Shown here: positions 2,078 to 63,888 of the stretch, piece after piece
Position numbering within the stretch: the stretch's first letter is position 1
Layout: the number at the start of each line of letters is the position of its first letter
From: Eledone cirrhosa
Lineage: Eukaryota
Assembly: GCA_964016885.1 (NCBI GenBank)
Contig: OZ024743.1
Coordinates: 222,084,001 to 222,148,000 of the forward strand
Direction: 5' to 3'
Length of the DNA stretch: 64,000 bases
The notes under the pieces: model-generated
The model's input: the letters and a program-made list of their open reading frames with translations, nothing else
What the model was told of the DNA's origin: nothing
Databases searched by the model: none
Position numbers and translations under genes: made by a program

Positions 2078-2290
2078 GAATGCCATGGTTGACGGAGGCT
2101 CGGCTCTGTAAGGTATAGTAATTTTTAACCGTTAAAACAATTGTAAATTGTTTAAAACTTGAACCAAATTGTTGATAAAGACACCCTCCTCCTCGTGAGA
2201 GGGGTCTTTCTGTCCGTTATTTGGCCCTTCGGGGTTAAATAACCAGTTATTGGGGTTTTGTACCCAAAATTTCATTTTAAACAAAAAAAC

Positions 2291-4391
2291 ATGGCTACCA
2301 AAAAAAAAAAATTTCATACGTCACTCCCACTCATTCCGTCTTCTTCTTCCTCAATCATCACTACAGGAGAGAGAAGATTGTCTCTCTCCCTCCCTTCTTT
2401 AAATGTGTCTCTCTCCCTACCTTCTCTTTCGCAAGCGACGAAAGAAAAGAAAAGTCTCGTGCAAAGCGTGCAAGGTTTCTCCACGACGACGACGACAGCG
2501 ACGAAACAGGTGTGCGGGAAATACGAAAACCCAGTTCATTCGTCTGACGTCAGGAATAATAGCAGTAGCAGCCGTAATAACAACAGCAACAGTGACAATG
2601 AAAACAACAGTAGCAGCCGCAACAGCATCACCAGCAGCATAAACAACAACAGCATTAGCAGCAGCAACACCAACAACAACCACAGCAACAGCGGCGGAGG
2701 CAGTAGTCGTAGTACCTGCAGCAACAACAAAAGTACCAGCAGCTCTGACGACAACAACAACAGCAGAGAAAAACCAATCTCATTTGCAGGTATTGCGAAA
2801 AACCTGGAAACAATCCTCATAACAAATGAGGAATTAGAGGAAGCGAAGAAGATGGTGACAAAGAACGGACACCGAGCAATCTGCAAGGCAGCGAAAAATT
2901 TTTTTCGAAACCCAAGAGCACTGTACGGTCACGTACCGTACAGTAAGTACAAAATCCCGTAGGGTGGAAAGAGCCACAGAGGCCCAAATACAAAAAGCCT
3001 TGGGGTCTGTGTGGCAGAGGAAAACGCACATCACCCGAGGCAAAAAATACGCCACCGTAGACGTACTTTTTGCCACACCCCAGGAGGCAAAGGCCCAATC
3101 AGTAGTGACCCTAAGGAGCGAGGAAATGGTGTTGGTGCCCTCCTACTGCGGGCAAAAAATTGTGAGGGTCAAACTGACCCACGTCCCCCCCGGAATGACC
3201 CCTTCTTGGCTGGCCGCGTCTGTCCTCGTCGGAATCGAGGACAAAACAACTGTACTGCAAGTACAGAAAAAAGTAAGAGAAGATTGGGTCGGCTCCTCCA
3301 TTGAGATGCTAATCCAAACCAACCAGGAGTGCATCGAAGCTATCCCGGATGTGATAGACTTCGATAACGGCACTCAACTGCCCATAAGTGTTGAGGGCAA
3401 ACGCCCGAAATGCTTTCGCTGTGGATCGAAGACTCACCTCAGGGCCTTCTGCAACGAGAAGACCCTGAGAAAGGAGAAAACCCCCCTCCTCCCGAATCCG
3501 GTTCCACGGCTACCAGCAACAGGACAAGCGGCAACCAGGAACGATAGGTCCGTGGCACCCATACCCACTCCACGGAAATCAAAGACAGCAGCAGCAGTGG
3601 AAATATTAACAACAACAACAGCAATACCAAATGCAGCTGCAACAGAGACTCCAGTGCAAACATCACCAACAACAACAAGTGAAAGAGTGGAGCTGGTACC
3701 CCTCCCCGACCTTACAGAATCAGACATGGAGTGTGAGGTGGGAGAGGGATGGCAAAAGGTCTCAAGAAGGCACAAACGCAGAAGCAGCGCATCGTCGCCT
3801 TTGAAAAGGGAGGAAAGAAATGAGAAAAGGGTAAAGTCTACTGCAAAGAGACCCACAGCAGCAACACCACCAACACCATCACCACCCACACCAGCACCAC
3901 CATCACCACCGGCGACAACCCCACCGCCAACAACACCTTCAACACCACCACCACAAGCACCAACATCGCAAACACAACAACAAAACACACACACCCAGCA
4001 ACAACGACAAGAAAATAGCAGAACCACACCCCACCCCCAGAAAAACAAATGCACGGCAATAAACACACACAACAAGAAACTAATGACTTACATAATTGAA
4101 CACACAGACATTTCACAACAGGACTACATAATACCAGCACCAATCAAAACGCCAACTAACATAAGACTGCTAAAAATAGCACAGAAACAATACACAAACA
4201 TTAAAACGAAATTTCCCAACGCAGTTGGTGATTTCAGGGACCTAGGAGGAACCATTAATCGAAGAGTATATTCAGACATTCTCTTAGAAGAGCCGACGAC
4301 CAGCCGAAGGGACGATTCAACGGTCCCTTCACCAGACGATCAAGTGAAAAGGGATGTAAAAACCATCCCTCCTCTACCAAAAATACGGTAA
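2291..4391 (+). pseudogene. ORF1 (gag-like nucleic-acid-binding protein), +1 frameshift
   Basis: Extra T in the T-run at ~2899-2905 (7 T versus 6 in other copies) splits the ORF; this could be a homopolymer sequencing error. Knuckle CFRCGSKTHLRAFC is present. Confidence 0.8.
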
Positions 4392-4426
4392 GTGGTCTTT
4401 CCCATCTTTTCCACTCTATTTTAAAC

Positions 4427-7400
4427 ATGACCTCACTCAGAATAGGCAGCATAAATGCGCGTGGCTTGGGGTCGTCATGGAAGCAGGGTCACCTGCTCAA
4501 CGACCTCAGGTCACTAAACATAGATGTAGTGGCCATCAGCGAGACCAGAATCTCCGAAGCACGGGCCTTCGCACCGATCTTCGGCGGCTACGATGTGTAC
4601 GCATCTCCCAGCCGTCCTGGATCCGGTGGAGGAGTTGCTGTACTTTTTCGGAGAGGTTTGGATCTCGCCATACGGGCCATCTTCCTGGACCCAGAGGGTA
4701 AGCTGGTGGTGCTGGACGTGACCAGCGGAGACGGGCAAGCCTTCAGGCTAGTGGCCGTCTATGCCCCGACAGGAGCAGGGCGGCCTGATTTCTTCCGGCG
4801 TCTGGAGACCTTTCTTGGAACGTCCCGCTCTTTAGTGTTAGTGGGCGACTGGAACGGGATCTTAGATGCACGCTGGGACTGTGTGGGATTAGCGGATAGG
4901 GGTGGAGGGTGCAAGAGCCTCACCAACCTGCTCAGGCGTTTTGAACTGTCTGACAGGTACCGATTGGATTTCCCGAATGTGCCAATGTGGACTTGGACAA
5001 ACCGCATAGGGTCATCCAGATCATATCTAGATAGAGTATTTTGTAGGGAAATAGATAGGTCTAGCATAGGCTGTCCACAATTCAAGATAGTCAGCTACAC
5101 GGACCACAAATTCGTGATCTGTGTGCTTGACTTAGATAGGCTTCATAGACGAGGACCCGGCTACTGGAAGCTAAACGCGTCCTTACCAGCGCGCAAGGCC
5201 TACAGAGACCGGATTAGCGAACTAGTTAAGCGGGCGTTGACGGGGGCCATCGTCAACAACAAGTGGTGGTTTGCTCTGAAAAGAGCGATTAGAATAGAAT
5301 CGATTAGGTTTAGTAAGGCTTTAGCAATAGAGAAAAATAGAGCAGAGGGAGAACTAGTTAGAAAATTAGACGAGGCGCTTAGCAAAGGCATTGCGACCGA
5401 CGTGCTTGCGGCGAAATTGGCCCTTGACCAATTCTTCAATGCAAAGCACGAAGGCTGCGTTGTCAGAGCTAGGGTGCGTGCTCTCAGACACGAGGGGACG
5501 AAAGCCGTTCAATGGGCCCGAGTGGCGGAGGCGCGTCGTGGCAACAAAGCCACGATCCGGTCTTTGGTGGACCACGACGGGCGCATGCTACTCGATCCCG
5601 GGCAAATGTGTGAAACTTTTCAGCGACACTTCGCTCAGCTGTTCGGGGGCAGCGGGGGGCCGGGTAGAGGGATGGACTTTAGTGTCTACCTCGACGGGCT
5701 GCCGCGGCTCTCGGCCACTGAGGCGAGGTGTTGCGAAAAGCCGATAACAGCCGCTGAAGTACGGGAGGCAATGACTGGCTGCACAAGGGGTAAATCGCCT
5801 GGTTTGGATGGTCTGCCCTATGAACTTTACGTACAGATGCCAGACTTGTTCGGAGGCCTCTTGGCGGACGTCTACTGCAACTGGCAACAGAACGGGAGAA
5901 TTCCCAGTTCTGTGAGCCGAGGAGCGGTGGCACTGCTGAGAAAGGATCCGAACAAGGGGGATAACATAGACAATTTCCGGCCCATAACTCTGCTAAACAC
6001 AGAGTTTAAGATTTTGGCCAAGGTGCTAGCAAAGAGGTTGGCGCTTGTCGTTGGTGGTCTGGTGGGAGAGGCGCAGACATGCGCCATTCCCGACAGATCC
6101 ATCCACGACAACCTCCACCTCATGCGATACATCGTAGAGAGGGTAGCTAGGGAACCTGGCACGGGTGGGTCCTTGATCAATTTAGATCAGTCGAAAGCTT
6201 TCGATAGGGTCGACCATCGTTACCTAGCGGCAGTCCTGAGGGCGGCTGGCTTTGGGCCCGTCTTCAGAGGCTGGATCGCTGCCATGCACAGCGACATCTG
6301 CTCTGTGGTGAGAGTGAACGGTCACCTGTCGGAACCGTTCAACATCATGCGCTCGGTCCGCCAAGGATGTCCCCTCTCGTCCCTCTTGTACGTATTGACT
6401 CTCGAGCCATTACTGCACAAACTGGAGACGTTGAGGGGAGTCCCGCGCGAACTAGGATGCGGAAGATCCGTGTCAGCATATGCGGACGATGTCACCGTAG
6501 TGGTGTCGAACGCCAAACACATCGAGGCGATCGGCACTACACTAAGAGAATACGAAGCGGTGACAGGAGCAATGATCAACCAGGAAAAGTCAGTGGGCCT
6601 GCAGCTCGGCACCTGGAGAGGCAGGTCCATGCCGTCCAACAGCGTCGTCGGGCGCTGGACGGACGGACCGGTTAAATTGCTAGGGGTCTGGTTCGGTCCG
6701 GACCTCCAGACGGACAAAAACTGGGACGAGGTGACGAGCAGGGTGGCTTCTCTCACCCAGAAATGGGCGGAGAGGAAGCTATCCCTGAAAGGTCGAGCGG
6801 AGGTGGCTAACGCGTACATCGCGTCTGTCATCTGCTACCGCCTAACCGTCGTACCTTGTCCTAAGCCTCGCCTGACTGCGCTGGAGCGTTTGCTCTTTCG
6901 CTTTTTGTGGAAGGGACGTGCTCCGATGGTCAGGCGGTCCATCTGTTGTCAACACCCGCTACGTGGAGGGCTGGGCATGCCGTGGCTGATGATGCGCAGG
7001 CACGCGCTCAGGCTACGACATCTCCACCTCTTCCTCGACGGTGATCAGGTGTGGTCGCCGTTTGCTAGACGCGTTTTTCCCCAGCTCGTTTCCTTGACGG
7101 AGCTGCAGTCCTGGGTCAAGCGAAGACCGAGAGGGAGCGCCTGGAGACTGGAATGTCTTCAGGCGCTCACAGCCCTCGACCAATCGGGCAATGTGATCGG
7201 TGGAAACTCCACCTCGGCGTTCTATAGAGGATTAGTGGAGGGGAAGAGCGACGACGTACTTGGGGAAACTCTAGGCGTCGACGAAAATCAACTAGCCAAT
7301 CTCTTCGGAAGAACTTTCGGGCCAGGGCCTATGGACAACTTCCAGAAATCTCTGGCCTGGCAGTGCTACCGAGGAGCCTTGCCAGTTCGGGATAAACTCT

Positions 7401-7846
7401 ACAGGCATGGAGGTGCCGTCAGCCGGGCATGTCCGAGATGCGCGCAGGGCGACGAAACCGTCCTGCACGCACTCGTCCAGTGTCCGAAAATTGCTGACTT
7501 GTGGGTTTATGTCGAACACCTGCTGTCGCGTTTAGGACGGATCCAGCTATCATCTGAGTCCATCGTGAGGATTGCCCCGCCCTCCTCCTTTAGCCGGGAA
7601 GGGCAGGCAGTTTTTATCTGTCTGGTGGCCATGGCGAAAGAGATAGTATGGTGGACACGTTTGAAAGGGCTGAAGACGAGCACTTACCTCTTCGGTGATG
7701 CTCTGATTGACTTTTTCAAATTTCATTTGAAAAGGAAAATCAGAGTAGAGAGGGAAGTGCTCTCTTCCCAGCATTTTGTTGAAAGATGGGTGAGAGAAGC
7801 AAGAATGGCCCGAGTGAATGGGCCGACTCTGAGTATATATCTGTAA
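4427..7846 (+). CDS. ORF2: APE endonuclease + reverse transcriptase + CCHC zinc finger (1139 aa)
   Basis: APE motifs SINARG, ISETR, VYAP, GDWN, YLDRVF, TDH; L1/Tx1 linker GPGYWKLN; RT motifs KSPGLDG, FRPITLLN, LDQSKAFDRV, RQGCPLS, YADD; C-terminal CPRC..H...C. Confidence 0.96.
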   Translation: MTSLRIGSINARGLGSSWKQGHLLNDLRSLNIDVVAISETRISEARAFAPIFGGYDVYASPSRPGSGGGVAVLFRRGLDLAIRAIFLDPEGKLVVLDVTSGDGQAFRLVAVYAPTGAGRPDFFRRLETFLGTSRSLVLVGDWNGILDARWDCVGLADRGGGCKSLTNLLRRFELSDRYRLDFPNVPMWTWTNRIGSSRSYLDRVFCREIDRSSIGCPQFKIVSYTDHKFVICVLDLDRLHRRGPGYWKLNASLPARKAYRDRISELVKRALTGAIVNNKWWFALKRAIRIESIRFSKALAIEKNRAEGELVRKLDEALSKGIATDVLAAKLALDQFFNAKHEGCVVRARVRALRHEGTKAVQWARVAEARRGNKATIRSLVDHDGRMLLDPGQMCETFQRHFAQLFGGSGGPGRGMDFSVYLDGLPRLSATEARCCEKPITAAEVREAMTGCTRGKSPGLDGLPYELYVQMPDLFGGLLADVYCNWQQNGRIPSSVSRGAVALLRKDPNKGDNIDNFRPITLLNTEFKILAKVLAKRLALVVGGLVGEAQTCAIPDRSIHDNLHLMRYIVERVAREPGTGGSLINLDQSKAFDRVDHRYLAAVLRAAGFGPVFRGWIAAMHSDICSVVRVNGHLSEPFNIMRSVRQGCPLSSLLYVLTLEPLLHKLETLRGVPRELGCGRSVSAYADDVTVVVSNAKHIEAIGTTLREYEAVTGAMINQEKSVGLQLGTWRGRSMPSNSVVGRWTDGPVKLLGVWFGPDLQTDKNWDEVTSRVASLTQKWAERKLSLKGRAEVANAYIASVICYRLTVVPCPKPRLTALERLLFRFLWKGRAPMVRRSICCQHPLRGGLGMPWLMMRRHALRLRHLHLFLDGDQVWSPFARRVFPQLVSLTELQSWVKRRPRGSAWRLECLQALTALDQSGNVIGGNSTSAFYRGLVEGKSDDVLGETLGVDENQLANLFGRTFGPGPMDNFQKSLAWQCYRGALPVRDKLYRHGGAVSRACPRCAQGDETVLHALVQCPKIADLWVYVEHLLSRLGRIQLSSESIVRIAPPSSFSREGQAVFICLVAMAKEIVWWTRLKGLKTSTYLFGDALIDFFKFHLKRKIRVEREVLSSQHFVERWVREARMARVNGPTLSIYL

Positions 7847-8106
7847 ACTAAAGGTGGAAAACTGGGAGAGGGCACTTGCCTTGGTGGTCAGGGTCATTGT
7901 GGCTTTTTACTGGGCTTTCTCCACAAATGTCCCTCCGAAGTCTCCCCCCTATTGGGGAATTTTTCATTGTTATTTTCATTGTTATTTTTGTTACATCCTC
8001 TGTTTTTGTTTTTTTACACGCAGAAATGCCCATTTGTACCGTCCTGCATTGTCCTGCACTGTCCTTAATGTCTACTTTATGTAAACCCTTGTGGTTAATA
8101 AAGAAA

Positions 8107-8108
<2 letters not shown>

Positions 8109-8159
<51 letters not shown>
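8109..8159 (+). repeat. (ATT)17 junction tract
   Basis: Pure ATT repeat between copies A and B. Confidence 0.95.
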
Positions 8160-13928: not shown

Positions 13929-14428
13929 ACTAAAGGTGGAAAACTGGGAGAGGGCACTTGCCTTGGTGGTCAGGGTCATTGTGGCTTTTTACTGGGCTTT
14001 CTCCACAAATGTCCCTCCGAAGTCTCCCCCCTATTGGGGAATTTTTCATTGTTATTTTCATTGTTATTTTTGTTACATCCTCTGTTTTTGTTTTTTTTAC
14101 ACGCAGAAATGCCCATTTGTACCGTCCTGCATTGTCCTGCACTGTCCTTAATGTCTACTTTATGTAAACCCTTGTGGTTAATAAAGAAATCATTATTATT
14201 ATTATTATTATTGAATGCCATGGTTGACGGAGGCTCGGCTCTGTAAGGTATAGTAATTTTTAACCGTTAAAACAATTGTAAATTGTTTAAAACTTGAACC
14301 AAATTGTTGATAAAGACACCCTCCTCCTCGTGAGAGGGGTCTTTCTCTCCGTTATTTGGCCCTTCGGGGTTAAATAACCAGTTATTGGGGTTTTGTACCC
14401 AAAATTTCATTTTAAACAAAAAAACAAC

Positions 14429-38451: not shown

Positions 38452-38628
38452 GAATGTCATGGTTGACGGAGGCTCGGCTCTGTAAGGTATAGTAATTTTT
38501 AACCGCTATAACAATTGTAAATTGTTTAAAACTTTAACCAAATTGTAGATAAAAACACCCTCCTCCTCGTGAGAGGGGTCTTTCTGCCCGTTTTTTTGGC
38601 CCTTCGGGGTTAAATAACCGCTTATTGG

Positions 38629-38791
38629 ACACACTAGACGAGGAAGACCAAGGTTAACGTATGTTGATGCCCTAAGGACAGACACTGGTCTGTTGGAGAC
38701 GCAGGACATGGCAGCGATAATGAGGGACAGAGACCGCTGGAGAGAACTCGTCCATGGATCTCGGGAATTTTACCCGCCTTAGATAGACAGA
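38629..38791 (+). mobile_element. 5'-truncated RTE-clade LINE 3' end inserted in the 5'UTR of copy G
   Basis: Translates HTRRGRPRLTYVDALRTDTGLLETQDMAAIMRDRDRWRELVHGSREFYPP*, an RTE-type GRP...D..DR..WR C-terminus, followed by a short agat/agac tail. Absent from other copies. Confidence 0.75.
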
Positions 38792-38813
38792 TTCATTTTA
38801 AACCAAAAAAAAC

Positions 38814-39187
38814 ATGGCTACAAAAAAGAATTTTCACAAGTCAGTCCCACTCATTCCGTCTTCTTCTTCTTCAATCGTCACTACATCAGAGAGAAGATTG
38901 TCTCTCTCCCTCTCTTCTCTAAATGTGGTGTCGCCTCTTTCGCAAGCGACGCCATTAAAGAAAAAGAAAATATAGTTTCTGATAGCTTTCACCAAGAGCA
39001 CATGCATACCGTGGAACATTTCTCCACGACGACGACAACGACGAAAAATGTGTGCGGTAAATACGGAAAGCCATTTCATTCGTCTGACGTCATGAAGAGT
39101 AGCAGTAGCAGCCGTAATAACAGCAGCAGCAGCAACAGTGACAAGGAAAACACTAGTAGCAGCCGCAACAACATCAGCAGCAGCATA

Positions 39188-39218
<31 letters not shown>

Positions 39219-40986
39219 ACAACACCAGCAGCAACAACAACAACAACAACAACAACCACAGCAACAGCGGCGGCGGCGGTCTTAGTACCAGCAGCAACAA
39301 CAAAAGTAACAGCAACTCTGACGACAACAACAACAACAACAACAACAAGAGAGAAAAACCAATCTCGTTTGCAGGTATCGCAAAGAACCTGGAAACCATC
39401 CTTATAACAAATGAGGAATTACAGGAAGCAAAGGAGGTGGTGACGAAAACCGGACACCGAGCAATCTGCAAGGCAGCCGAAAAAATTTTCGAAACCCAAC
39501 AGCACTGTACGGTCACGTACCGTACAGTAAGCACAAAATCACGTAGGGTTGAAAGAGCCACAGAGGCTCAAATACAAAAAGCCTTAGGGTCTGTGTGGCA
39601 GCAGAAAACGCATATCACCCGAGGCAAGAAATATGCCACCGTGGACGTGCTTTTTGCCACAGCCCAAGAGGCAAAGGCTCAATCCTTAGTGACCCTAGGG
39701 TGCGAGGAAATGGTGTTGGTGCCCTCCTACTGCGGGCAAAAAATTGTGAGGGTCAAACTGACCCACGTCTCCCCCCCCCCCCCCCCCCCACTCCCGGGAT
39801 GACCCCTTCTTGACTAGCCCCGTCTGTCCTCGTCGGAATCGAGGACAAAACAACTGTACTGCAAGTACAGAAAAAAGTACGAGAAGATTGAGTCGGCACC
39901 TCCATTGAGATGTTAATCCAAACCAACCAGGAGTGCATCGAAGCTATCCCGGATGTGATAGACTTCGATAACGGCACTCAACTGCCCATAAGTGTTGAGG
40001 GCAAACGCCCAAAAGGCTTTCGCTGTGGATCGAAAACTCACCTTAGGGCCTTCTGCAATGAGAAGACCCTGAGAAAGGAGAAAACCCCCCTCCTTCCGAA
40101 TCCGGCTCCACTGCTACCAGCCACAGGACAGGCGGCAAGCAGGAAGGATAGGTCCGTGGCACCCATACCCACGCCACGGAAATCAAGAACAGCAGCAGCA
40201 GTGGAAGTATTAACAACAACAACAGTAATACCAACTGCAGCTGCAACAGAGACTCCACTGCAAACATCACCAACAACAACAAGTGAAAGAGTGGAGCTGG
40301 TACCCCTCCCCGACCTCACAGAATCGGACATGGAGTGTGAGGTGGGAGAGGGATGGTAAAATGTCGCAAGAAGGCACAAACGCAGAAGCAGCGCATCGTC
40401 GCCTTCGAAAAGGGAAGAAAGAAAGAAAAAAGGGTAAAGGCTACTGCAAAGAGACTTACAGCAGCAACACCACCCACACCATCACCACCCACACTAGCAC
40501 CACCATCACCACCGGCGGCAACCCCACCGCAAACAACAACAACACCTTCAACACCACCACCACAAGCACCAACATCGCAAACACAACAACAAAACACACA
40601 CACCCTGCAATAACGACAAGAAAATAGCAGAACCACACCCCACCCCCAGAAAAACAAATGCACAGCAATAAATACACACAACAAGAAACTAATGACTTAC
40701 ATAATTGAACGCAGACATTTCACAGCACGACTACATAATACCAGCACCAATCAAATCACCAATGAACATAAGACTGGTAAGAATAGCACAGAAACAATAC
40801 ACAAACATTAAAACGAAATTCCCCAACGCAGTTGGTGATTTCAGAAACCTAGGAGGGACACTCAACCGGAGAGTATATTCGGATATACTCACAGAAGAGC
40901 CGACGACCAGCCGAAGGGACGATTCACCAGACGATCAAGTGAAAAGGGATGGCGAAACCATCCTTCCTCTACGAGAAGAAAGGTAA
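38814..40986 (+). pseudogene. ORF1 of copy G (disrupted)
   Basis: Homologous to ORF1 of A-F; stops at ~39811, ~39888 and ~40357, a poly-C expansion at ~39770-39789, and frameshifts. Confidence 0.88.
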
Positions 40987-41020
40987 GTGGTCTTTCCTAT
41001 CTTTTCCACTCCATTTCAAC

Positions 41021-44000
41021 ATGAGCTCACTCAGAATAGGCAGCATAAATGCGCGTGGCTTGGGGTCGTCATGGAAGCAGGGCCACCTGCTCAACGACCT
41101 CAGGTCACTAAACATAGATGTAGTGGCCATCAGCGAGACCAGAATCTCCGAAACACAGGCCTTCGCACCGATCTTCGGCGGCTACGATGTGTACGCATCA
41201 CCCAGTCGTCCTGGATCGGGGGAAGGAGTTGCTGTGATTTTTCGGAGAGGTTTGAATCTTGCCATACGGGCCATCTTCCTGGACCCAGAAGGTAAGTTAG
41301 TGGTGCTGGACGTGACCAGCGAAGACGGGCAAGCTTTCAGGCTGGTGGCCGTCTATGCTCCGACAGGAGCAGGGCGGCCTGATTTCTTCCGGCGTCTGGA
41401 GACCTTTCTTGGAACGTCCCGCTCTTTAGTGTTAGTGGGCGACTGGAACGGGATCTTAGATGCACGCTGGGACTGTGTGGGATTAGCGGATAGAGGAGGA
41501 GGGTGCAAGAGTCTCACCAACCTGCTCAGGCGTTTTGAACTGTCTGACAGATACCAATTGGATTTCCCGAATGTGCCAATGTGGACTTGGACAAACCGCA
41601 TAGGGTCATCCAGATCATATCTAGATAGAGTATTTTGTAGGGAAATAGATAGGTTTAGTAAGGCTTTAGCAATAGAGAAAAATAGAGCAGCAGGAGAATT
41701 AGTTAGAAAATTAGACGAGGCGCTTAACAAAGACATCGCAACCGACGTACTTGCGGCGAAATTGGCCCTTGACCAATTCTTCAATGCAAAGCACGAAGGC
41801 TGCGTTGTCAGAGCTAGGGTGCGTGCTCTCAGACACGAGGGGGCAAAAGCCGTTCAATGGGCCCGAGTGGCGGAGACGCGTCGTGGCAACAAAGCCACGA
41901 TCCGGTCTTTGGTGGACCACGACGGGCGCATGCTACTCGATCCCGGGAAAATGTGTGAAGCTTTTCAGCGACACTTCGCACAGCTGTTCGGGGGCAGCGG
42001 CGGGCCGGATCGGGGGATGGACTTTAGTGTCTACCTCGACGGACTGCCGCGGTTCTCGGCCACTGAGGCGGAGTGTTGTGAAAAGCCGATAACAGCCGCT
42101 GAAGTACGGGAGGCAATGACTGGCTACACAAGGGGTAAATCGCCTGGTTTGGATGGTCTGCCCTATGAACTTTACGTACAGATGCCAGACTTGTTCGGAG
42201 GCCTCTTGGCGGACGTCTGCTGCAACTGGCAACAGAACGGGAGAATTCCCAGCTCTGTGAGCTGAGGAGCTGTGGCGCTGCTGAGAAAGGATCCGAACAA
42301 GGGGGATAACATAGATAATTTCAGGCCCATAACTCTGCTAAACACAGAGTTCAAGATTTTGGCCAAGGTGCTAGCAAAGAGGTTGGCGCTTGTCGTTGGT
42401 GGTCTGGTGGGAGAGACGCAGACGTGCGCCATTCCCGACAGATCCATCCACGACAACCTCCACCTCATGCGATACATCGTTGAGAGGGTAGCTAGGGAAC
42501 CTGGCACGGGTGGGTCCTTGATCAATTTAGATCAGTCGAAAGCTTTCGATAGGGTCGACCATCGTTACCTAGCGGCAGTCCTGAGGGCGGCTGGCTTTGG
42601 GCCCGTCTTCAGAGGCTGGATCGCTGCCATGCACAGCGACATCTGCTCTGTGGTGAGAGTGAACGGTCACCTTTCGGAACCGTTCAACATCATGCGCTCG
42701 GTCCGCCAACGATGTTCCCTCTCGTCCCTCTTGTACGTATTGACTCTCGAGCCATTACTGCACAAACTGGAGACGTTGAGGGGCGTCCCGCGCGAACCAG
42801 GATGCGGAAGATCCGTGTCAGCATATGCGGACGATGTCACCGTAGTGGTGTCGAACGCCAAACACATCGAGGCGATCGGCACTACACTAAGAGAATACGA
42901 AGCGGTGACAGGAGCAATGATCAACCAGGAAAAGTCAGTGGGCCTGCAGCTCGGCACCTAGAGAGGCGGGTCCATGCCGTCCAACAGCGTCGTCGGACGC
43001 TGGACGGACGGACCGGTTAAATTGCTAGGGGTCTGGTTCGGTTCGGACCTCCAGACGGACAAAAACTGGGACGAGGTGACGAGCAGGGTGGCTTCTCTCA
43101 CCCAGAAATGGGCGGAGAGAAAGCTATCCCTGAAAGGTCGAGCGGAGGTGGCTAACGCGTACATCGCGTCTGTCATCTGCTACCGCCTGACCGTCGTACC
43201 TTGTCCTAAGCCTCGCCTGACTGCGCTGGAGCGTTTGCTCTTTCACTTTTTGTGGAAGGGACGCGCTCCGATGGTCAGGCGGTCCATCTGTTGTCAACAC
43301 CCGCTACGTGGAGGGCTGGGCATGCCGTGGCTGATGATGCGCAGGCACGCGCTCAGGCTACGACATCTCCACCTCTTCCTCGACGGTGATCAGGTGTGGT
43401 CGCCGTTTGCTAGACGCGTTTTTCCCCAGCTCGTTTCCTTGACGGAGCTGCAGTCCTGGGTCAAGCGAAGACCGAGAGGGAGCGCCTGGAGACTGGAATG
43501 TCTTCAGGCGCTTACAGCCCTCGACCAATCGGGCAATGTGATCGGTGGAAACTCCACCTCGGCGTTCTATAGAGGATTAGTGGAGGGGAAGAGCGACGAC
43601 GTACTTGGGGAAACTCTAGGTGTCGACGAAAATCAACTAGCCAATCTCTTCGGAAGAACTTTCGGGCCAGGGCCTATGGACAACTTCCAGAAATCTCTGG
43701 CCTGGCAGTGCTACCGTGGAGCCTTTGCCAGTTCGGGATAAACTCTACAGGCATGGAGGTGCCGTCAGCCGGGCATGTCCGAGATGCGCGCAGGGCGACG
43801 AAACCGTCCTGCACGCACTCGTCCAGTGTCCGAAAATTGCTGACTTGTGGGTTTATGTCGAACACCTGCTGTCGCGTTTAGGACGGATCCAGCTATCAGC
43901 TGAGTCCATCGTGAGGATTGCCCCGCCCCCTTCTTTTAGCCGGGAAGGGCAGGCAGTTTTTATCTGTCTGGTGACCATGGCGAAAGAGATAGTATGGTGG

Positions 44001-44191
44001 ACACGTTTGAAAGGGCTGAAGACGAGCACTTACCTCTTCGGTGATGCTCTGATTGACTTTTTCAAATTTCATTTGAAAAGGAAAATCAGAGTAGAGAGGG
44101 AAGTGCTCTCTTCCCAGCATTTTGTTGAAAGATGGGTGAGAGAAGCAAGAATGGCCTGAGTGAATGGGCTACTCTGAGTTTATATCTGTAA
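41021..44191 (+). pseudogene. ORF2 of copy G (disrupted)
   Basis: 249-nt in-frame deletion at ~41650, stops at 42263 and 42959, frameshift at ~43725. Confidence 0.92.
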
Positions 44192-44432
44192 ATTAAAGGT
44201 GGAAAACTGGGAGAGGGCACTTGCCTTGGTGGTCAGGGTCATTGTGGCCTTTTACTGGGCTTTCTCCACAAATGTCCCTCCGAAGTCTCCCCCCTATTGG
44301 GGAATTTTTCTTTGTTATTTTATTACATCCTCTGTTTTTTACACGCAGAAATGCCCATTTGTACCGTCCTGTATTGTCCTGTACTGTCCTTAATGTCTAC
44401 TTTATGTAAACCCTTGTGGTTAATAAAGAAAA

Positions 44433-44472
<40 letters not shown>

Positions 44473-44681
44473 GGCGACCTACGTAGTAAATCGTATCATC
44501 GTGAGCTCCGCAAAGGTTTGTTATTTCCGTTTGTTAAAAATATCCATTTATGGAAAATTTTTATTGTTAACTATATATAAGCGCACATACATTGTTTTCC
44601 GAAAAGGACACCCAAAAAGATTGGGGCCTTGTGCCCAAAATTTAAACTTTTATGATTATCAAAAAATTTCTTTGAAAGAAA

Positions 44682-46679
44682 ATGGCTAATTCACCACTGC
44701 ACCAAGCAGCTGAAAGCCTTTCTCACAAATTAACACCTCACACCGACACCACCATTGTAAATGATTATACGTCTTCCAACACAAATAAATTAAGCACTAG
44801 CAATATTTTAAATTTGTCTCAGGCAGACATTCATTTCCCACCATTACCAATGACTGAAGGTGTTAAAGCCGCCACCACCACCACCACCGCGACAACCACC
44901 ACCCCCACCACCACCGCGACAGCAGAAACAAAAGGAAAAAATAAATCAACTCGTGATGTCGAAATATTTTCAACCAAAATAGACTCTCCCAAACCTACTT
45001 TCACTGACGTCACCACCACCACAACTGAAACTAAAATTAATAATAACAAAAATAACGATAGCAACAACAACAACAATGACATTAAAAAAATCACCCTCAG
45101 TTTTGTCAGAGTAGCAAAACAGTTCGAAGCATTTACGGTAACTCAGGAGGATTTAGAAAATGCCAAACAAATGGTAAAGAAAGATGGATACAGGGTCAGC
45201 CTCACCCACCCACCCCACCCCACACCTAATAAAATGGAGCATCGGCGCCTATGCACCGTGTCGTATCGAACAATAAATGTAAAATCGCGCCGAGTGGAAC
45301 GGGCATCCGAGTCCCAAATCCAAAAAGCTTTGGGACATGTGTGGGCAAGAAAAACCCACATCAGACGTGGGCAGAAGTATGGAACCGTGGACGTGTTCTT
45401 TGAAACACCAGAGGAGGCCAGAGAACACTCCATGGCCCCATTAAGAAGTGACGACTTCACACTCGTCCCAAGCTATTGTGGCCAGAGACTCGTAAAGATC
45501 AGGGTGACCCACGTTCCACCGGCCATCGAAATTCCCTGACTAATAGCGGCCGTCCTCGCCGGCATCGAAGCCAACACAAAAATAATAGCAATAACAAAAG
45601 AAAAGCAGGAGAACTGGTCCGGATCTGGGATGGAGCTCCTGATCCAAGCGGACCAAAAAAGCATTGAGGAGATCCCAGAGGTAATAGACCTCACTGACGG
45701 CAGCCACCTCACCGTAATTGTCGAGGGCAGAAGGCCTAGGTATGTCGTTTGTGGTGAAGGAACCCACCTAAGAGCTTTCTGCCCTCAGGCTAAAAGGTTG
45801 AGGCCACCTCTCCTACCCACCCCAGTGACACAACCAACAACACCACCAGTAGCAGAGATGGCAGCAACAAATGTAGCAGCAACAACAGAAGCAACTATAA
45901 CAGCAACAACCCCAGCAACAGTAGCAAAACCAACACCACCACCACCAGTAAAACCAACACCACCACCACCCAACGCTTCAGAACTAGCACCAGCGCCTAC
46001 ACCATCCACCACGCCACAACCAAAACTAACGCCTGTGGAGGATTTTCCACTCCCCGGCCTATCACAACTGGAGACAGATTGTGACGACGAGGAGTGGGAA
46101 ACGGTATCCGGAAAAAAAAAAAGAAACCAAAAAAGAAAAAATTCTCTTCCTTCCCCCTCCAAAAACAAAATACAGAGGGAAACAAATAAATTAAGAAACA
46201 AAAAAGTTAGGACAGATATGCCACCATCCACACCAGCATCACCAACCCCATCAACCCAAACACCAACTCCATCACCATCATTAACCCCAACACCACCATC
46301 ACCTACACCACAAAAGTCACCAAAATGCGAAACAGAAACAAACCCACAACAAACGCAAACAAAACAAAACAACCAAAACGATACACACTACACAGCATTA
46401 AATTTGAACAACAAGCAATTATTACACTACATCCAACACAACACCAGCATCACAGAAAAAGACTACACAACAACACCAAAATTCACACCACCTCCACACA
46501 TACAAATCACTCGCATCACACAGAAAACGTACATGACACTAAAACAAAAATTCCCCAAAGACATCGGAGACTTCCGACAAGCACTCTCCAGGAGGATTTA
46601 TAAGGACATCCTTCCTGAGGAGGCCACAAGCAGTGAAAAGGATGGAAAAACCGTCCTTCCCCTACGAGAAGAAAGGTAA
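44682..46679 (+). pseudogene. Divergent ORF1 (type 2) with one nonsense codon
   Basis: Core motifs align with ORF1 of A-F (CTVSYRT..KSRRVERASESQIQKALG, LVPSYCGQ, CGEGTHLRAFC); termini do not align. TGA at 45537-45539, frame continues. Confidence 0.88.
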
Positions 46680-46713
46680 GTGGTCTTTCCCATCTTTTCC
46701 ACTCCTTTTCAAC

Positions 46714-49700
46714 ATGACCTCACTCAGAATAAGCAGCATAAATGCGCGTGGCTTGGGGGTCGTCATGGAAGCAGGGCCACCTGCTCAACGACCTCAGGTC
46801 ACTAAACATAGATGTAGTGGCCATCAGCGAGACCAGAATCTCCGAAGCACAGGCCTTCGCACCGATCTTCGACGGCTACGATGTGTACGCATCTCCCAGC
46901 CGTCCGGGATCGGGGGGAGGAGTTGCTGTGCTTTTTCGGAGAGGTTTGGATCTTGCCATACGGGCCATCTTCCTGGACCCAGAAGGTAAGTTGGTGGTGC
47001 TGGACGTGGCCAGCGGAGACGGGCAAGCTTTCAGGTCAGTGGCCGTCTATGCCCCGACAGGAGCAGGGCGGCCTGATTTCTTCCGGCGTCTGGAGACCTT
47101 TCTTGGAACGTCCCGCTCTTTAGTGTTAGTGGGCGACTGGAACGGGATCTTAGATGCACGCTGGGATTGTGTGGGATTAGTGGATAGGGAAGGAGGGTGC
47201 AAGAGTCTTACCAACCTGCTCAGGCGTTTTGAACTGTCTGACAGGTACCGAATGGATTTCCCGAATGTACCAATGTGGACTTGGACAAATCGCATAGGGT
47301 CATCCAGATCATATCTAGATAGAGTATTTTGTAGGGAAATAGATAAGTCTAGCATAGGCTGTCCACAATTCAAGATAGTCAGCTACACGGACCACAAATT
47401 CGTAATCTGTGTGCTTGACTTAGATAGGCTTCATAGAAGAGGACCCGGCTACTGGAAGCTAAACGCGTCCTTACCAGCGCGCAAGGCCTACAGAGACCGG
47501 ATTAGTGAACTAGTTAAGCGGGCGTTGACGGGGGCCATCGTCAACAACAAGTGGTGGTTTGCTCTGAAAAGAGCAATTAGAATAGAGTCTATTAGGTTTA
47601 GTAAGGCTTTAGCAATAGAGAAAAATAGAGCAGAGGGAGAATTAGTTAGAAAATTAGACGAGGCGCTTAGCAAAGGCATCGCGACCGACGTACTTGCGGC
47701 GAAATTGGCCCTTGACCAATTCTTCAATGCAAAGCACGAAGGCTGCGTTGTCAGAGCTAGGGTGCGTGCTCTCAGACACGAGGGGACGAAAGCCGTTCAA
47801 TGGGCCCGAGTGGCGGAGGTGCGTCGTGGCAATAAAGCCACGATCCGGTCTTTGGTGGACCACGACGGGCGCATGCTACTCGATCCCGGGCAAATGTGTG
47901 AAGCTTTTCAGCGACACTTCGCTCAACTGTTCGGGGGCAGTGGCGGGCCGGATCGAGGGATGAACTTTAGTGTCTACCTCGACGGACTGCCGCGGCTTTC
48001 GGCCACTGAGGCGGAGTGTTGCGAAAAGCCGATAACAACCGCTGAAGTACGGGAGGCAATGACTGGCTGCACAAGGGGTAAATCGCCTGGTTTGGATGGT
48101 CTGCCCTATGAACTTTACGTACAAATGCCAGACTTGTTCGGAGGCCTCTTGGCGGACGTCTACTGTAACTGGCAACAGAACGGGAGAATTCCCAGCTCTG
48201 TGAGCCGAGGAGCGGTGGCGCTGCTGAGAAAGGATCCGAACAAGGGGGATAACATAGATAATTTTAGGCCCATAACTCTGCTAAACACAGAGTTCAAGAT
48301 TTTGGCCAAGGTGCTAGCAAAGAGGTTGGCGCTTGTCGTTGGTGGTCTGGTGGGAGAGGCGCAGACATGCGCCATTCCCGACAGATCCATCCACGACAAC
48401 CTCCACCTCATGCGATACATCGTAGAGAGGGTAGCTAGGGAACCTGGCACGGGTGGGTCTTTGATCAATTTAGATCAGTCGAAACCTTCGATAGGGTCGA
48501 CCATCGTTACCTAGCGGCAGTCCTGAGGGCGGCTGGCTTTGGGCCCGTCTTCAGAGGCTGGATCGCTGCCATGCACAGCGACATCTGCTCTGTAGTGAAA
48601 GTGAACGGTCACCTTTCGGAACCGTTCAACATCATGCGCTCGGTCCGCCAAGGATGTCCCCTCTCGTCCCTCTTGTACGTATTGACTCTCGAGCCATTAC
48701 TGCACAAACTGGAGACGTTGAGGGGGGTCCCGCGTGAACTAAGATGCGGAAGATCCGTGTCAGCATATGCCGACGATGTCACCGTAGTGGTGTCGAACGC
48801 CAAACACATCGAGGCGATCGGCACTACACTAAGAGAATACGAAGCGGTGACAGGAGCAATGATCAACCAGGAAAAGTCAGTGGGCCTGCAGCTCGGCACC
48901 TAGAGAGGCAGGTCCATGTGTCCAACAGCGTCGTCGGGCGCTGGACGGACGGACCGGTTAAATTGCTAGGGGTCTGGTTCGGTCAAGACCTCCAGACGGA
49001 CAAAAACTGGGACGAGGTGACGAGCAGGGTGGCTTCTCTCACCCAGAAATGGGCGGAGAGGAAGCTATCCCTGAAAGGTCGAGCGGAGGTGGCGAATGCG
49101 TACATCGCGTCCGTCATCTACTACCGCCTGACCGTCGTACCTTGTCCTAAGCCCCGCCTGACTGCGCTGGAGCGTTTGCTCTTTCGCTTCTTGTGGAAGG
49201 GACGTGCTCCGATGGTCAGGCGGTCCAACTGCTGTCAACACCCGCTACGTGGAGGGCTGGGCATGCCGTGGCTGATGATGCGCAGACACGCGCTCAGGCT
49301 ACGATATCTCCACCTCTTCCTCGACGGTGATCAGCTGTGGTCGCCGTTTGCTAGACAAATTTTTCCCCAGCTCGTCTCCTTGACGGAGCTGCAGTCCTGG
49401 GTCAAGCGAAGACCGAGAGGGAGCGCTTGGAGACTGGAATGTCTTCAGGCGCTTACAGCCCTCGACCAATCGGGCAATGTGATCGGTGGAAACTCCACCT
49501 TGGCGTTCTATAGGGGATTAGTGGAGGGGAAGAGCGACGACGTACTAAGAGAAACTCTAGGAGTCGACGAAAATCAACTAGCCAATCTCTTCGGAAGGAC
49601 TTTCGGGCCGGGGCCTATGGACAACTTCCAGAAATCCCTGGCCTGGCAGTGCTACCGGGGAGCCTTGCCAGTTCGGGATAAACTCTACAGGCATGGAGGT

Positions 49701-50132
49701 GCCGTCAGCCGTGCATGTCCGAGATGCGCGCAGGGCGACGAAACCGTCCTGCACGCACTCGTCCAGTGTCCGAGCATTGCTGACTTGTGGGTTTATGTCG
49801 AACACCTGCTGTCACGTGTAGGACGGATCCAGCTATCACCTGAGTCCATCGTGAGGATTGCCCCGCCCCCTTCTTTTAGCCGGGAAGGGCAGGCAGTTTT
49901 TATCTGTCTGGTGACCATGGCGAAAGAGATAGTATGGTGGACACGTTTGAAAGGGCTGAAGACGAGCACTTACCTCTTCGGTGATGCCCTGATTAACTTT
50001 TTCAAATTTCATTTAAAAAGGAAAATCAGGGTAGAGAGGGAAGTGCTCTCTTCCCAGCATTTTGTTGAAAGATGGGTGAGAGAAGCAAGTATGGCCCGAA
50101 TGAATGGGCCTTCTCTGAGTATGTGTCTGTAA
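46714..50132 (+). pseudogene. ORF2 of copy H (disrupted)
   Basis: Very similar to young ORF2; frameshifts at ~46757, ~48485 and ~48919, stop at 48901. Confidence 0.92.
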
Positions 50133-50603
50133 ATTAAGGGTGGAAAACTGGGAGAGGGCACTTGCCCTGGTGGTCAGGGTCACTGTGGTCTTTTAATGGG
50201 CTTTCTCCACAAATGTCCCTCGGAAGTCTCCCCCCTATTGGGGAATTTTTCTTTGTTATTTTATTTCATCCTCTGTTTTTTACACGCAGAAATGCCCATT
50301 TGTACCGTCCTGTATTGTCCTGTACTGTCCTTAATGTCTACTTTATGTAAACCCTTGTGGTTAATAAAGAAAACATTATTATTATTATTATTATTATTAT
50401 CGGTCTGTTCGGACGCCTTTTGCTCGCTCCCAGTAAGTCGCTTTATTTGCCTGTTAAAATTATTTGTTGTTAAGTATTTCTTGTTGTGTAAGGGATATAA
50501 GCCCTTAGATTTTGCCCTGTTAAGGGGAAAGTAAAATATGTGGGCCTTTTAGCCCAAATATTTGAACATTTTACTTTTAAAAAAAAAATGTTTCAAAAAA
50601 AAC

Positions 50604-51193
50604 ATGGCTGAGCCACGCCCCCAGCAATATGTCTGCTGTCGTCTGACAACGGCGTAAAAGTTGAGAGGCGGGTTACAAACATTGTTACAACAGACACCAC
50701 CACAAACAACGGGAACAAAGACAACACTGAGAACACTAATTTCGAAAAAATTACCACACCAACTACAACAATAACAGCGTCAACCAAAATACAGACAACA
50801 GAAAAAAATGACAACAAATGCAACAACGATATTAACACCACTAACAAGAAAATAAACAACGACAACACCAACAGCAACAATGCAGATTGCACCGAAAACA
50901 ACAACAACGGTGGCACCAAAAACACAACCAGCTACAACAGTGATAACAGCAACAACACCAACAACACCGTTCGTAGCAGTAACAACAGCAACAACACCAA
51001 CAACAAGACCAGTAGCGGTAGCAATAATGGTGCCGCTGAAAAAGGGGCCACTTCTTTCGCAGGTGTGGCCCGAAATATAGACTTCAGAGGGTCGGTTACC
51101 AAGAGGATATACACCGACATCCTCTTGGAAACACCCATGACCAGCCAAAGGGACGGTTCTACTGTCCCTTCACCACACGATCAAGGTAAGTGA
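50604..51193 (+). pseudogene. Internally deleted ORF1 (type 3)
   Basis: aacATGGCT start, early frameshift, Asn/Thr-rich stretch, then TSFAGVARNI joined directly to DFRGSVTKRIYTDILLE..STVPSPHDQ. Core and knuckle are missing. Confidence 0.75.
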
Positions 51194-54583: not shown

Positions 54584-54853
54584 ATTGAGGAGTGGGAGAA
54601 CTGAGAGAGGGTGCTTGCCCTGGTGGTTAGGGTGGCTGTGGTCTTTTGTGTGGTTTTCGCCACGAGTGACCCTCCAGAAACTCACCTTATTGACTTCTGC
54701 AGAAATTGTAAAGTATGACAGTATGGTGACTAATGTCAGGATACGATCTGTAATTCCACCCTTACGGAAACTAAAGTATATGTTGACAATTTAAAAACTA
54801 TAATATCTTTTATCTCTATTTCATGCCGCAAAAACTGGCGATGGGCCGGCGAC

Positions 54854-54907
54854 CTGTCCATCAGTGTCAGAGCCATGAAGCTTCATGGCTCTGACACTGC
54901 TGGACAG
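54854..54907. repeat. 54-bp near-perfect palindrome
   Basis: ctgtccatcagtgtcagagccatgaag|cttcatggctctgacactgctggacag; one mismatch, no spacer. Confidence 0.9.
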
Positions 54908-56297: not shown

Positions 56298-56836
56298 GAA
56301 GCCAGTTCTATTATGTTTAGTAACGTGTTGATATCAACAAACGCTCACAAGTCATGCTATGTCACATGCCTCGAATACATGTTTTTTCTTATCATTGGTG
56401 ACTTTGTCGTTGATTTGGCGTTTCTGTGACAAGTTCGTTTATTTAAAATGTATTAAAATCTAGGCAACGATTTTATAAAATCTTGTGAAACGGGCAAAAC
56501 ATTATTTATCCCATTAACAAGAGACTTTCTTTTAGGGTTTATTCCTTTTATTTGGGGTTTTTCGTCTTTATTTACGCAAGCATAAAAACAGTGTTGACAA
56601 ATTATTTCTTTGGAAATGTAACTTTTGAAGGAAAAAAGACAATCAAGTATTATTAAATTTTCGGTCAAATTCCTTTACTATGTATGTCATAAGGAGACAA
56701 AATATCGTGAAAATAGAATGTAGGGGTTTTATTTAATGAACGAATTAATCAATACAAAGTCTAATGAATCGCCGGAACAGCCAAGCCTAAAAGAAACTTG
56801 TACGGTAAGTTTTATTTTTCATATATATTTTCTTTT

Positions 56837-57013
56837 ATTCGCCCATTTGTTCCTAAGAAGGTCGTGGGAGCAGACTCCTCAAACACTCCCTCCAACGAGT
56901 CCTGTCAGAAGCAACCGTCTCCAACTGATTCGGCTAGATCCCCAAGCATGACCAGCTAAACTCATGGATGTTATCCAATCATCTTGCTTGAGGTCTACCC
57001 TTGAGTCTCCTAC
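56837..57013 (-). mobile_element. RTE-clade LINE 3' fragment
   Basis: Reverse complement homologous to 54930-55105. Confidence 0.75.
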
Positions 57014-63774: not shown

Positions 63775-63888
63775 CCTCCTCGGTCTGACTGGATCTCCAA
63801 GCGTGAACAGCCAAGCACATGGATGTTATTCAACCAACTTGCTCGGAGTCTACCCCTGAGTCTTTTGCCGGTTGGTTTTGCCCGAATC
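63775..63888 (-). mobile_element. RTE-clade LINE fragment
   Basis: IRAKPTGKRLRGRLRASWLNNIHVLGCSRLEIQ, homologous to 54908-55020. Confidence 0.7.

Follow-up and report, generated by a model that had tools for sequence, protein, structure and literature searches.

The window, i.e., the whole 64-kb stretch of DNA that was analyzed, contains a head-to-tail tandem array of LINE copies designated A to I, and all coordinates given here refer to its forward strand. Copy A (2078..8159) is an APE-type LINE of about 6.05 kb that possesses two open reading frames and an (ATT)n tail. It is directly followed, head to tail, by copies B to F (8160-38451), and then by copies G (38452-44472), H (44473-50398) and I (50399 to about 54785). 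Copies A to F are mutually 98.6-99.5% identical; both reading frames are intact only in copies B, C, D and E, in which ORF1 encodes 695-698 amino acids. ORF1 of copy A (2291..4391) is frameshifted; it has a knuckle of the CCHC type and, on its C-terminal side, an FPxD(V/I)G block. A spacer of 34-35 nt separates ORF1 from ORF2 (4427..7846 in copy A), whose 1139-residue product comprises an APE endonuclease, a reverse transcriptase and a zf-RVT domain. At this single sampled locus, an (ATT)n repeat precedes the 5' end of every copy (9/9), and the two A-type subgroups are interleaved. Searches of the 64 kb with Rfam and ARAGORN yielded no matches to RNA genes.

Judged by its domain content and layout, the element is an L1/Tx1-type APE non-LTR retrotransposon. 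ORF2 matches the Pfam families Exo_endo_phos (3e-14), RVT_1 (1e-28) and zf-RVT (7e-8), and its closest relative of solved structure is human L1 ORF2p (E 1e-51 over residues 5-855), with R2 at 1e-21; ORF1 is a separate upstream frame, the 3' tail is a simple repeat, and LTRs are absent. ORF1 has no significant Pfam match; its sequence contains a C-x2-C-x4-H-x4-C knuckle, and its Atlas neighbors are zf-CCHC and ZCCHC3-type RNA-binding clusters (0.91-0.93), the combination of RNA-binding domain and CCHC knuckle that characterizes ORF1 of the Tx1 clade. The element also resembles this clade in its APE-RT-zinc finger ORF2, its apparent repeat target and its tandem insertion, a likeness by features rather than by tree. 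According to an extract of one report, microsatellite targeters of the Tx1 (L1-Tx1) clade include Kibi, inserted into (TC)n, and Koshi, inserted into (TTC)n (PMC4494074), whereas the element described here apparently targets (ATT)n. Thirteen recently active L1-Tx1 families are mentioned for Octopus vulgaris in PMC13282606. No relative of the element was found in a prokaryotic genome collection; four exact 20-mer matches in bacterial records are regarded as chance.

At the ORF1 end lies a splice-donor consensus, GTAAGT, present in all nine copies that have an ORF1 end, as an earlier note on this DNA had proposed. In copy A it occupies 4388..4393, overlaps the ORF1 stop codon, and lies in phase 2. 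It reads CG|GTAAGT in copies A to F (starting at 4388, 10470, 16513, 22563, 28637 and 34683), and AG|GTAAGT in G (40983), H (46676) and I (51186..51191); in copy I the donor is in phase 1 and ORF1 ends in GK-stop. Its score is the highest among 315 GTs in copy B and the joint highest in G, H and I. The earlier view that three ORF1 types provide independent evidence for the donor does not hold: A to F are nearly identical, and ORF1 of A to G ends in H-type sequence, so that two donor lineages remain, H-type and I-type. This H-type end (4345..4387 in copy A; the last 43 nt of ORF1 are 34/43 identical to H in B and 38/43 in G) was captured along with the spacer and ORF2. Directly before it, at 4302..4344, copies A to G retain a relic of an I-type ORF1 end that is identical at 38 of 43 positions to the 43 nt preceding the copy I donor, has equal length and equal frame, and terminates precisely where the I-type exon ends. 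Since this relic shows phase 1 of the I-type donor to be genuine, the suggestion that copy I is off-phase through decay fails as well, and donor phase is not conserved between the lineages.

Around the donor, H and I share 49 matches over 79/81 nt (about 61% identity), and the only common word of at least 7 nt is the 10-mer AAG|GTAAGTG, despite the differing reading frames. The motif outlasted a frame change that relocated the stop codon, which is a TAA within the motif in H and a TGA after it in I. At the protein level, GK-stop or GKS-stop, the peptide encoded by G|GTAAGT, terminates two of three independent complete ORF1 homologues (one from Argonauta hians), as compared with 2/145 other matches. 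These GK-ended homologues are of 29-30% identity, the comparison being one of protein ends and not of their DNA, and two distant homologues match phase 1 of the I-type donor. Left out of the count were P0024, which looks related to P0005 but frameshifted, and P0018, which ends inside the domain; by construction, the C-terminal profile fits the four seed proteins. None of six more distant long ORF1 homologues ends in GK, and P0005 has GK seven residues before its end. In view of these comparisons, the donor is probably genuine and under selection, with deeper conservation than the window alone shows.

The earlier note joined this donor to the CTCAG at 4436..4440, which forms ORF2 codons Leu4-Arg5, to give a 52-53 nt intron that fuses ORF1 to ORF2 in frame, so that ORF2p would be made as part of a protein of about 1830 amino acids. 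While the donor part of this interpretation probably stands, we consider the fusion intron itself clearly improbable. Several of the underlying observations are sound: removal of 4388-4440 (53 nt) leaves a fusion frame open for 1135 codons in A to F, the 52-nt form keeps the junction of G and H in frame, and the spacer is indeed pyrimidine-rich (tract at 4396..4420 in copy A; 22-23 of 25 positions at +9..+33), being AG-free for 45-47 nt in B, H and I. In copy G, however, the first AG is not CTCAG but an ATGAG that ends at 41025 (a 43-nt intron, also in frame), and the quoted junction read fits B to F but differs by one base from copy A, whose ORF1 is in any case frameshifted. Very short Drosophila introns can benefit from a pyrimidine run placed between the donor and the branch point. 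In C. elegans, an intron length of about 50 nt is ordinary (PMC9438311), and 52-53 nt may be permissible here, as no octopod minimum intron size was found in the literature; this length is below the vertebrate short-intron peak of about 76 nt. The change of the spacer from 35 to 34 nt, pointed out earlier, says nothing about phase, which is set only by the codon positions of donor and acceptor and not by intron length.

Against the fusion intron speaks the lack of a conserved in-frame phase (phase 2 in the H-type, phase 1 in the I-type). The first AG is in frame in one of the two independent lineages and gives a stop after one codon in the I-type; use of the second AG there would strip ORF2 of residues 1-6 and with them half the first strand. 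The cut would in any case fall within residues 3-10, the first β-strand of the endonuclease according to a model of low confidence (mean pLDDT 51). The acceptor scores in a middling range, ranking 13/441 among the AGs of B, 19/439 in G, 4/398 in H and 35/316 in I, with 12-14 of 20 pyrimidines beside the AG, and the main tract adjoins the donor instead. No YTRAY occurs in any of the four copies tested, in keeping with the earlier remark that no branch point is evident, and ORF2 retains its own ATG, an A at -3 and Leu4 in both lineages. An Octopus sinensis gene model containing part of a related endonuclease starts, as inferred at the protein level, near residue 28 and not at residue 5. Fusions of this kind were absent from 150 ORF1 matches and two ORF2 matches, in databases that hold no close family member; the two ORF2 matches, neither fused, came from 3539 candidates when ORF2 residues 1-250 were compared with proteins of 626-1994 amino acids. 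There was no match among eight short candidates for ORF1 residues 575-698, and a single match, itself a member, in an ORF1 alignment search. In the absence of close relatives from the databases, such blanks carry no information. P0098 joins ORF1 and ORF2 pieces at unrelated positions and was rejected as a fusion. Likewise rejected was an ORF2-only RNA spliced from a 5' donor, the stretch between donor and ATG being devoid of AG. The intron-less genomic copies that the earlier note proposed to seek are missing from the window, which holds no match to the spliced junction of either the short intron or the long one discussed below.

Ribosomal frameshifting in an overlap, with the splice motif as an incidental feature, could also give access to ORF2, and in the five copies tested the ORF2 frame is in fact already open 12-65 codons before its ATG. 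Nevertheless, ORF2 lies at -1 relative to ORF1 in A, B and I but at +1 in G and H, no canonical slippery heptamer is apparent by eye, and folding is unremarkable (z -1.75); we regard this explanation as highly improbable.

A second splice motif is present downstream of ORF2. In copy A, a U-rich tract with a candidate 3' splice acceptor spans 7956..8023, its AG ending at 8023; the corresponding AGs end at 14106 (B), 20149 (C), 26199 (D), 32273 (E), 38318 (F), 44348 (G) and 50289 (H). The 3' end of copy I (54687..54785) comprises GCAG|AAAT, with the AG ending at 54702, and a stretch that has homology to the last piece of H. By a simple pyrimidine count devised here and not trained on the host, this acceptor ranks first among 441 AGs in B, 439 in G, 398 in H and 316 in I, and its upstream stretch is AG-free for 61-82 nt in B, G and H. 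The middle of the UTR, which measures 44 nt in I, 98 nt in H and 119 nt in B, has been reshuffled, and the longest common word is GCAG|AAAT; of 20000 shuffles of the I segment, 110 scored equally well and 27 carried this 8-mer. The distance from acceptor to poly(A) signal is 73 nt in H and 67 nt in I. The candidate terminal exon (8024..8108) measures 85 nt, its phase-2 frame stops after 19 codons, and AATAAA lies at 8097. Three of five variants within it are synonymous in this frame, a weak preference (P about 0.24). In copy I, the spliced frame runs for about 30 codons to a stop beyond a degraded poly(A) signal. Upstream of the acceptor lies a conserved 3' UTR block (7852..7950; H and I agree at 81 positions over 105/107 nt), for which an RNA structure was considered and rejected (1/28 pairs compensatory; z 1.16, 0.47 and -0.48).

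Chance combined with descent could account for both motifs, the donor being a stop codon with lucky flanks and the acceptor a consequence of the U-richness of the UTR. About one GTAAGT (0.9-1.0) is expected per strand of a 6-kb unit, and an equally good AAG|GTAAGT, arising from E-G-K codons, occurs within ORF2 of G (41292), H (46986) and I (51468). Given the U-rich UTR, an equal acceptor arose in 55 (B), 294 (G) and 102 (H) of 2000 dinucleotide shuffles, and a common 8-mer of any kind was present in 1212 of the 20000 shuffles of the I segment. Moreover, at the DNA level there are only two lineages, and the homologues and the acceptor were chosen after the data had been seen. However, the donor persisted through the frame change, each motif is the longest conserved word of its region, and GK ends recur in proteins as diverged as those above; we view chance as an unlikely explanation.

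We suggest instead that the donor at the ORF1 end pairs with the 3' UTR acceptor, so that ORF2 would be spliced out to leave an ORF1-only mRNA, a prediction from sequence that we hold to be about evenly balanced between true and false. The two motifs flank ORF2, and the H-type and I-type lineages have both kept them amid neighboring sequence that has drifted; against this, some words survive neutrally through shared descent, 29% of 7-mers being intact in ORF2 at 83% identity. Splicing would remove the entire ORF2 (3.4-3.6 kb) and yield a predicted mRNA of about 2.4 kb that provides surplus ORF1p, while the unspliced RNA of about 6 kb would serve as template and give rise to ORF2p from its own AUG by termination-reinitiation, as proposed for L1. 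With the donor on the stop codon, ORF1p would be made whole from both RNAs, extended by 19 residues in A to H when spliced, and the stop would be placed in the last exon. A stop codon in the last exon would escape nonsense-mediated decay. The conserved 3' UTR block would be intronic, and one may speculate that this prevents copying of the short RNA.

The arrangement recalls Drosophila copia, whose intron of about 3 kb spans all of POL; in copia and in EVD/Ty1-copia, a spliced subgenomic RNA provides the structural protein, and the unspliced RNA provides enzyme and template, as described in portions of PMC5580714. Here, as in copia and the short Gag RNA of Arabidopsis EVD, the structural ORF carries the donor at its end, and in two lineages, by our own score, the candidate acceptor follows ORF2 and precedes the poly(A) signal. 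Unlike these single-ORF LTR elements, which need splicing to create a stop and in which splicing has been demonstrated, the bicistronic non-LTR element studied here has a stop at its ORF1 and its splicing is predicted; EVD terminates early, whereas the proposed short RNA reuses the 3' end. Functional splice sites also occur within human L1, where spliced RNAs can retrotranspose; however, its SpORF2 and SpIRE RNAs use donors in the 5' UTR and thereby lose ORF1 or the promoter, and the SpIRE authors judge L1 splicing detrimental (PMC2896524, PMC5860796), whereas here ORF2 would be excised and the sites look conserved. Termination-reinitiation for ORF2 is described for L1 and SART1 in part of PMC5972666; like L1, the element has a conserved AUG for ORF2 and a short spacer (63 nt in L1), but it lacks the overlapping stop-start of SART1. 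HAL1 (half-L1) elements, which are ORF1-only derivatives (PMC5753468), are similar to what the predicted spliced RNA would leave behind on retrotransposition; the window holds no such copy. In the literature searched, we found neither conserved splice motifs around ORF2 described for Tx1-clade elements nor such an intron in Tx1/L1-type elements.

The same motifs might instead bind U1 and U2AF and shape transcription and 3'-end formation, through a block to premature polyadenylation and last-exon definition, with little splicing. This would explain their conservation in the absence of spliced copies, and a head-to-tail array needs its read-through stopped; U1 binding shields full-length EVD RNA from premature termination, as stated in a section of PMC5580714. 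In A, B, G, H and I, AATAAA or ATTAAA hexamers precede the donor by 176-335 nt, but A and B have no such hexamer between the donor and the terminal signal, so that there would be little to protect. Furthermore, a transcript with donor and acceptor both strong would normally undergo splicing, and we consider this explanation quite unlikely.

LINEs require ORF1p in large excess over ORF2p, which is usually attributed to poor reinitiation on a single bicistronic RNA. If real, a conserved intron that excises ORF2 would provide a second route to ORF1p excess, convergent with copia, and would change LINE expression counts in cephalopods, as ORF1 reads would then arise without the enzyme. Copies A to G are chimeras of an I-type ORF1 with an H-type module, and the junction falls after an AG. 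It is possible that this junction is a fossil of donor use; a template switch at the 2-nt AG microhomology explains it equally well. A broader scenario, in which a cephalopod Tx1-type LINE lineage evolved a conserved copia-like, ORF2-spanning intron without any link to LTR elements, and in which the same donor gave rise to the A-F family that now dominates by ORF1 swapping (an I-type ORF1 spliced onto an H-type neighbor in the tandem array), appears doubtful to us. The chimera itself suggests a way for LINEs to exchange ORF1 modules.

The first 55 kb of the window are filled by head-to-tail non-LTR retrotransposons of about 6 kb, here designated copies A to I from left to right. Their ORF1 (~698 amino acids) contains a CCHC knuckle, and ORF2 (1139 amino acids) carries APE, RT and zf-RVT domains and finds its nearest relative among solved structures in the human L1 ORF2p. 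An (ATT)n run precedes the 5' end in nine of nine copies; between 2078 and 54785 these runs measure 18-51 nt, and the oldest elements lie at the right end. The arrangement suggests that the array was built by (ATT)n-targeted insertion, and the two interleaved groups (A, C, F versus B, D, E) into which copies A-F, 98.6-99.5% identical, are divided fit repeated insertion into tails. Two relatives are named, from Octopus sinensis and Argonauta hians, which makes an octopod host probable. The element works like a member of the Tx1 clade that targets a microsatellite, and is probably one; elements of this kind are described in the accessible parts of PMC4494074 and PMC5203782. Copies H and I have different 5' UTRs and ORF1s (44473-46679 in H, 50399-51193 in I), the H ORF1 being about 65% identical to that of B in its conserved part, and their ORF2s are related (95% identity to B for H, 81-83% for I); this is modular swapping.

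GTAAGT overlaps the end of ORF1 (4388 in A) in all nine copies that have an ORF1 end, just as an earlier note had stated. That note proposed a 52-53 nt intron (4388-4440 in A) fusing ORF1 and ORF2 in frame; the fusion is open in A-F, but not with the first AG in the I-type junction, one of two diverged lineages named after copies H and I. Nor is CTCAG always the first AG, since a different one comes first in G (43 nt), and the change in spacer length lends no support because it has no effect on phase. In B, the final 86 nt of ORF1 are made up of two 43-mers: the first is I-type (38/43 identical to I, 26 to H), the second H-type (34/43 identical to H, 27 to I; in G, 38 to H). The three ORF1 types thus share junction ancestry and reduce to two independent donors, of which the H-type is in phase 2 and the I-type in phase 1. 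Copy I does need the next AG, as claimed, but its phase 1 is not decay, since the I-type relic in intact copies matches it in length and frame. With the first AG, phase 1 runs into a stop one codon later; the second, 5 nt on, is the only in-frame option and would cost ORF2 residues 1-6. Residues 3-10 lie in the first strand in a low-confidence structure model, and in an alignment with the L1 endonuclease, residues 5-10 correspond to its residues 9-14. We consider the short fusing intron quite improbable; the open-access literature, as far as its accessible text goes, yielded no spliced ORF1-ORF2 fusion in a Tx1/L1 element.

The most likely reading, which we judge about as apt to be right as wrong, is that the donor and an acceptor in the 3' UTR (AG ending at 8023 in A) form an intron that would excise ORF2. 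When every AG in B, G, H and I was ranked with our own simple pyrimidine-weighted score, this 3' UTR site came first in all four (14106, 44348, 50289 and 54702, respectively), while the AG of the short intron ranked 13/441, 19/439, 4/398 and 35/316. In B, G and H, 61-82 U-rich, AG-free bases lead up to the site, and AATAAA comes 73 nt after it. Its top rank is less surprising because the UTR is U-rich: 55, 294 and 102 of 2000 shuffles (B, G, H) gave as good an acceptor. Copy I is the stronger argument for this candidate. Its seemingly truncated 3' end is still homologous to the terminal piece of H (score equalled by 0/2000 shuffles and 0/448 flank windows), and the stretch between two anchor blocks measures 44 nt in I, 98 in H and 119 in B. 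Although I has lost the U tract there, GCAG|AAAT is still the longest word shared, and 110/20000 shuffles reach the acceptor score of I; this weighs less because of shared descent (any common 8-mer, 1212/20000 shuffles). A second-ranked acceptor-like site lies at 8449 in B, 72 nt inside ORF1, and at 38889 in G.

Splicing would take out 3366-3637 nt, leaving in B a predicted exon 1 of 2310 nt and a last exon of 85 nt; in A-H the predicted spliced frame adds 19 residues and stops ahead of the poly(A) signal. The motifs, their conservation and the frames are observed, and from them the splicing, its product and the role of that product are inferred. Against this count the decayed copy I, whose spliced frame passes a degraded poly(A) signal, and last-exon variants that are synonymous in just three of five cases; a search for a spliced copy within the window found none. 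ORF2p would be translated from unspliced RNA, starting at its own AUG, which has A at -3 in five of five copies tested; for L1, reinitiation across the spacer has been proposed (PMC5972666, in part). Expression of ORF2 by frameshifting we hold to be extremely improbable.

GTAAGT alone is no better than chance, since about one is expected per unit strand and a further perfect one lies within ORF2 of G, H and I. The H and I junction regions match at 49 positions over 79/81 nt, and their only shared word of at least 7 nt is the donor-containing 10-mer, despite a moved stop codon. A C-terminal block occurs in five ORF1 homologues among the 150 listed of 237 with E up to 0.001; two were dropped, P0024 (apparently a frameshifted relative of P0005) and P0018 (ending inside the domain). 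A GK-stop or GKS-stop end, as in copy I, is found in two of the remaining three, versus 2/145 other listed matches and 0/6 more distant long ones among those listed (rough binomial 0.0006 for 2/3 and 0.006 for 2/9, with sets picked post hoc and codons unseen). Judged from these comparisons, the donor, which resembles the typical animal agGTaagt (PMC13644364, in part), is probably selected at the nucleotide level. That the motifs arose by chance is unlikely but credible, and that they are signals acting without splicing is slightly less probable still.

In A-G the switch from I-type to H-type sequence coincides exactly with the I-type exon boundary, and on the H side an AG immediately precedes it. 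This is possibly a fossil of donor use, such as would be left if an I-type element were spliced to the H-type element downstream of it; template switching explains it equally well, because the tract at the H-side AG is poor, 2 nt of microhomology are present and a splice origin needs one extra base to give the present frame.

The predicted ORF2-spanning intron shares its anatomy with Drosophila copia, whose Gag RNA arises by splicing out an intron over all of POL, and also resembles EVD (both from the accessible text of PMC5580714). Human L1 is spliced too, but from 5' UTR donors (PMC2896524, PMC5860796), and the introns of TART occur in antisense RNA (PMC1636488), each according to the portions available. 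The available portions of PMC13282606 and PMC10294476 present molluscan L1-Tx1 only as counts, and in the accessible open-access literature no conserved intron spanning ORF2 turned up for a Tx1/L1 element.

Other splice-like motifs include a perfect AAG|GTAAGT at codons 90-92 of ORF2 in G, H and I (41292, 46986, 51468). A tectonic-3-like gene model of Octopus sinensis includes a related endonuclease piece (ORF2 residues ~28-90) that stops exactly at this position, which suggests exonisation or a gene-model artefact. Each of the three 5' UTR types, which seem unrelated to one another, also contains donor-like sequence 34-43 nt from the 5' end (2110-2118, 44516, 50433), weak in A-G and GTAAGT in I. 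Copy G has an insertion of about 160 nt in its 5' UTR (38629-38790) and is missing about 230 nt from ORF2 near 41655, and the ORF1 of I has a large internal deletion. The segment 1541-2077 comprises about 220 nt of unrelated sequence and, after it, a 5'-truncated copy that retains only the 3' UTR (89% to B) and carries a tail of its own. Just past copy I, a 54-nt near-perfect palindrome (96%; 54854-54907) adjoins a different repeat, which is found again in inverted orientation at 56835-57013 and 63789-63882.
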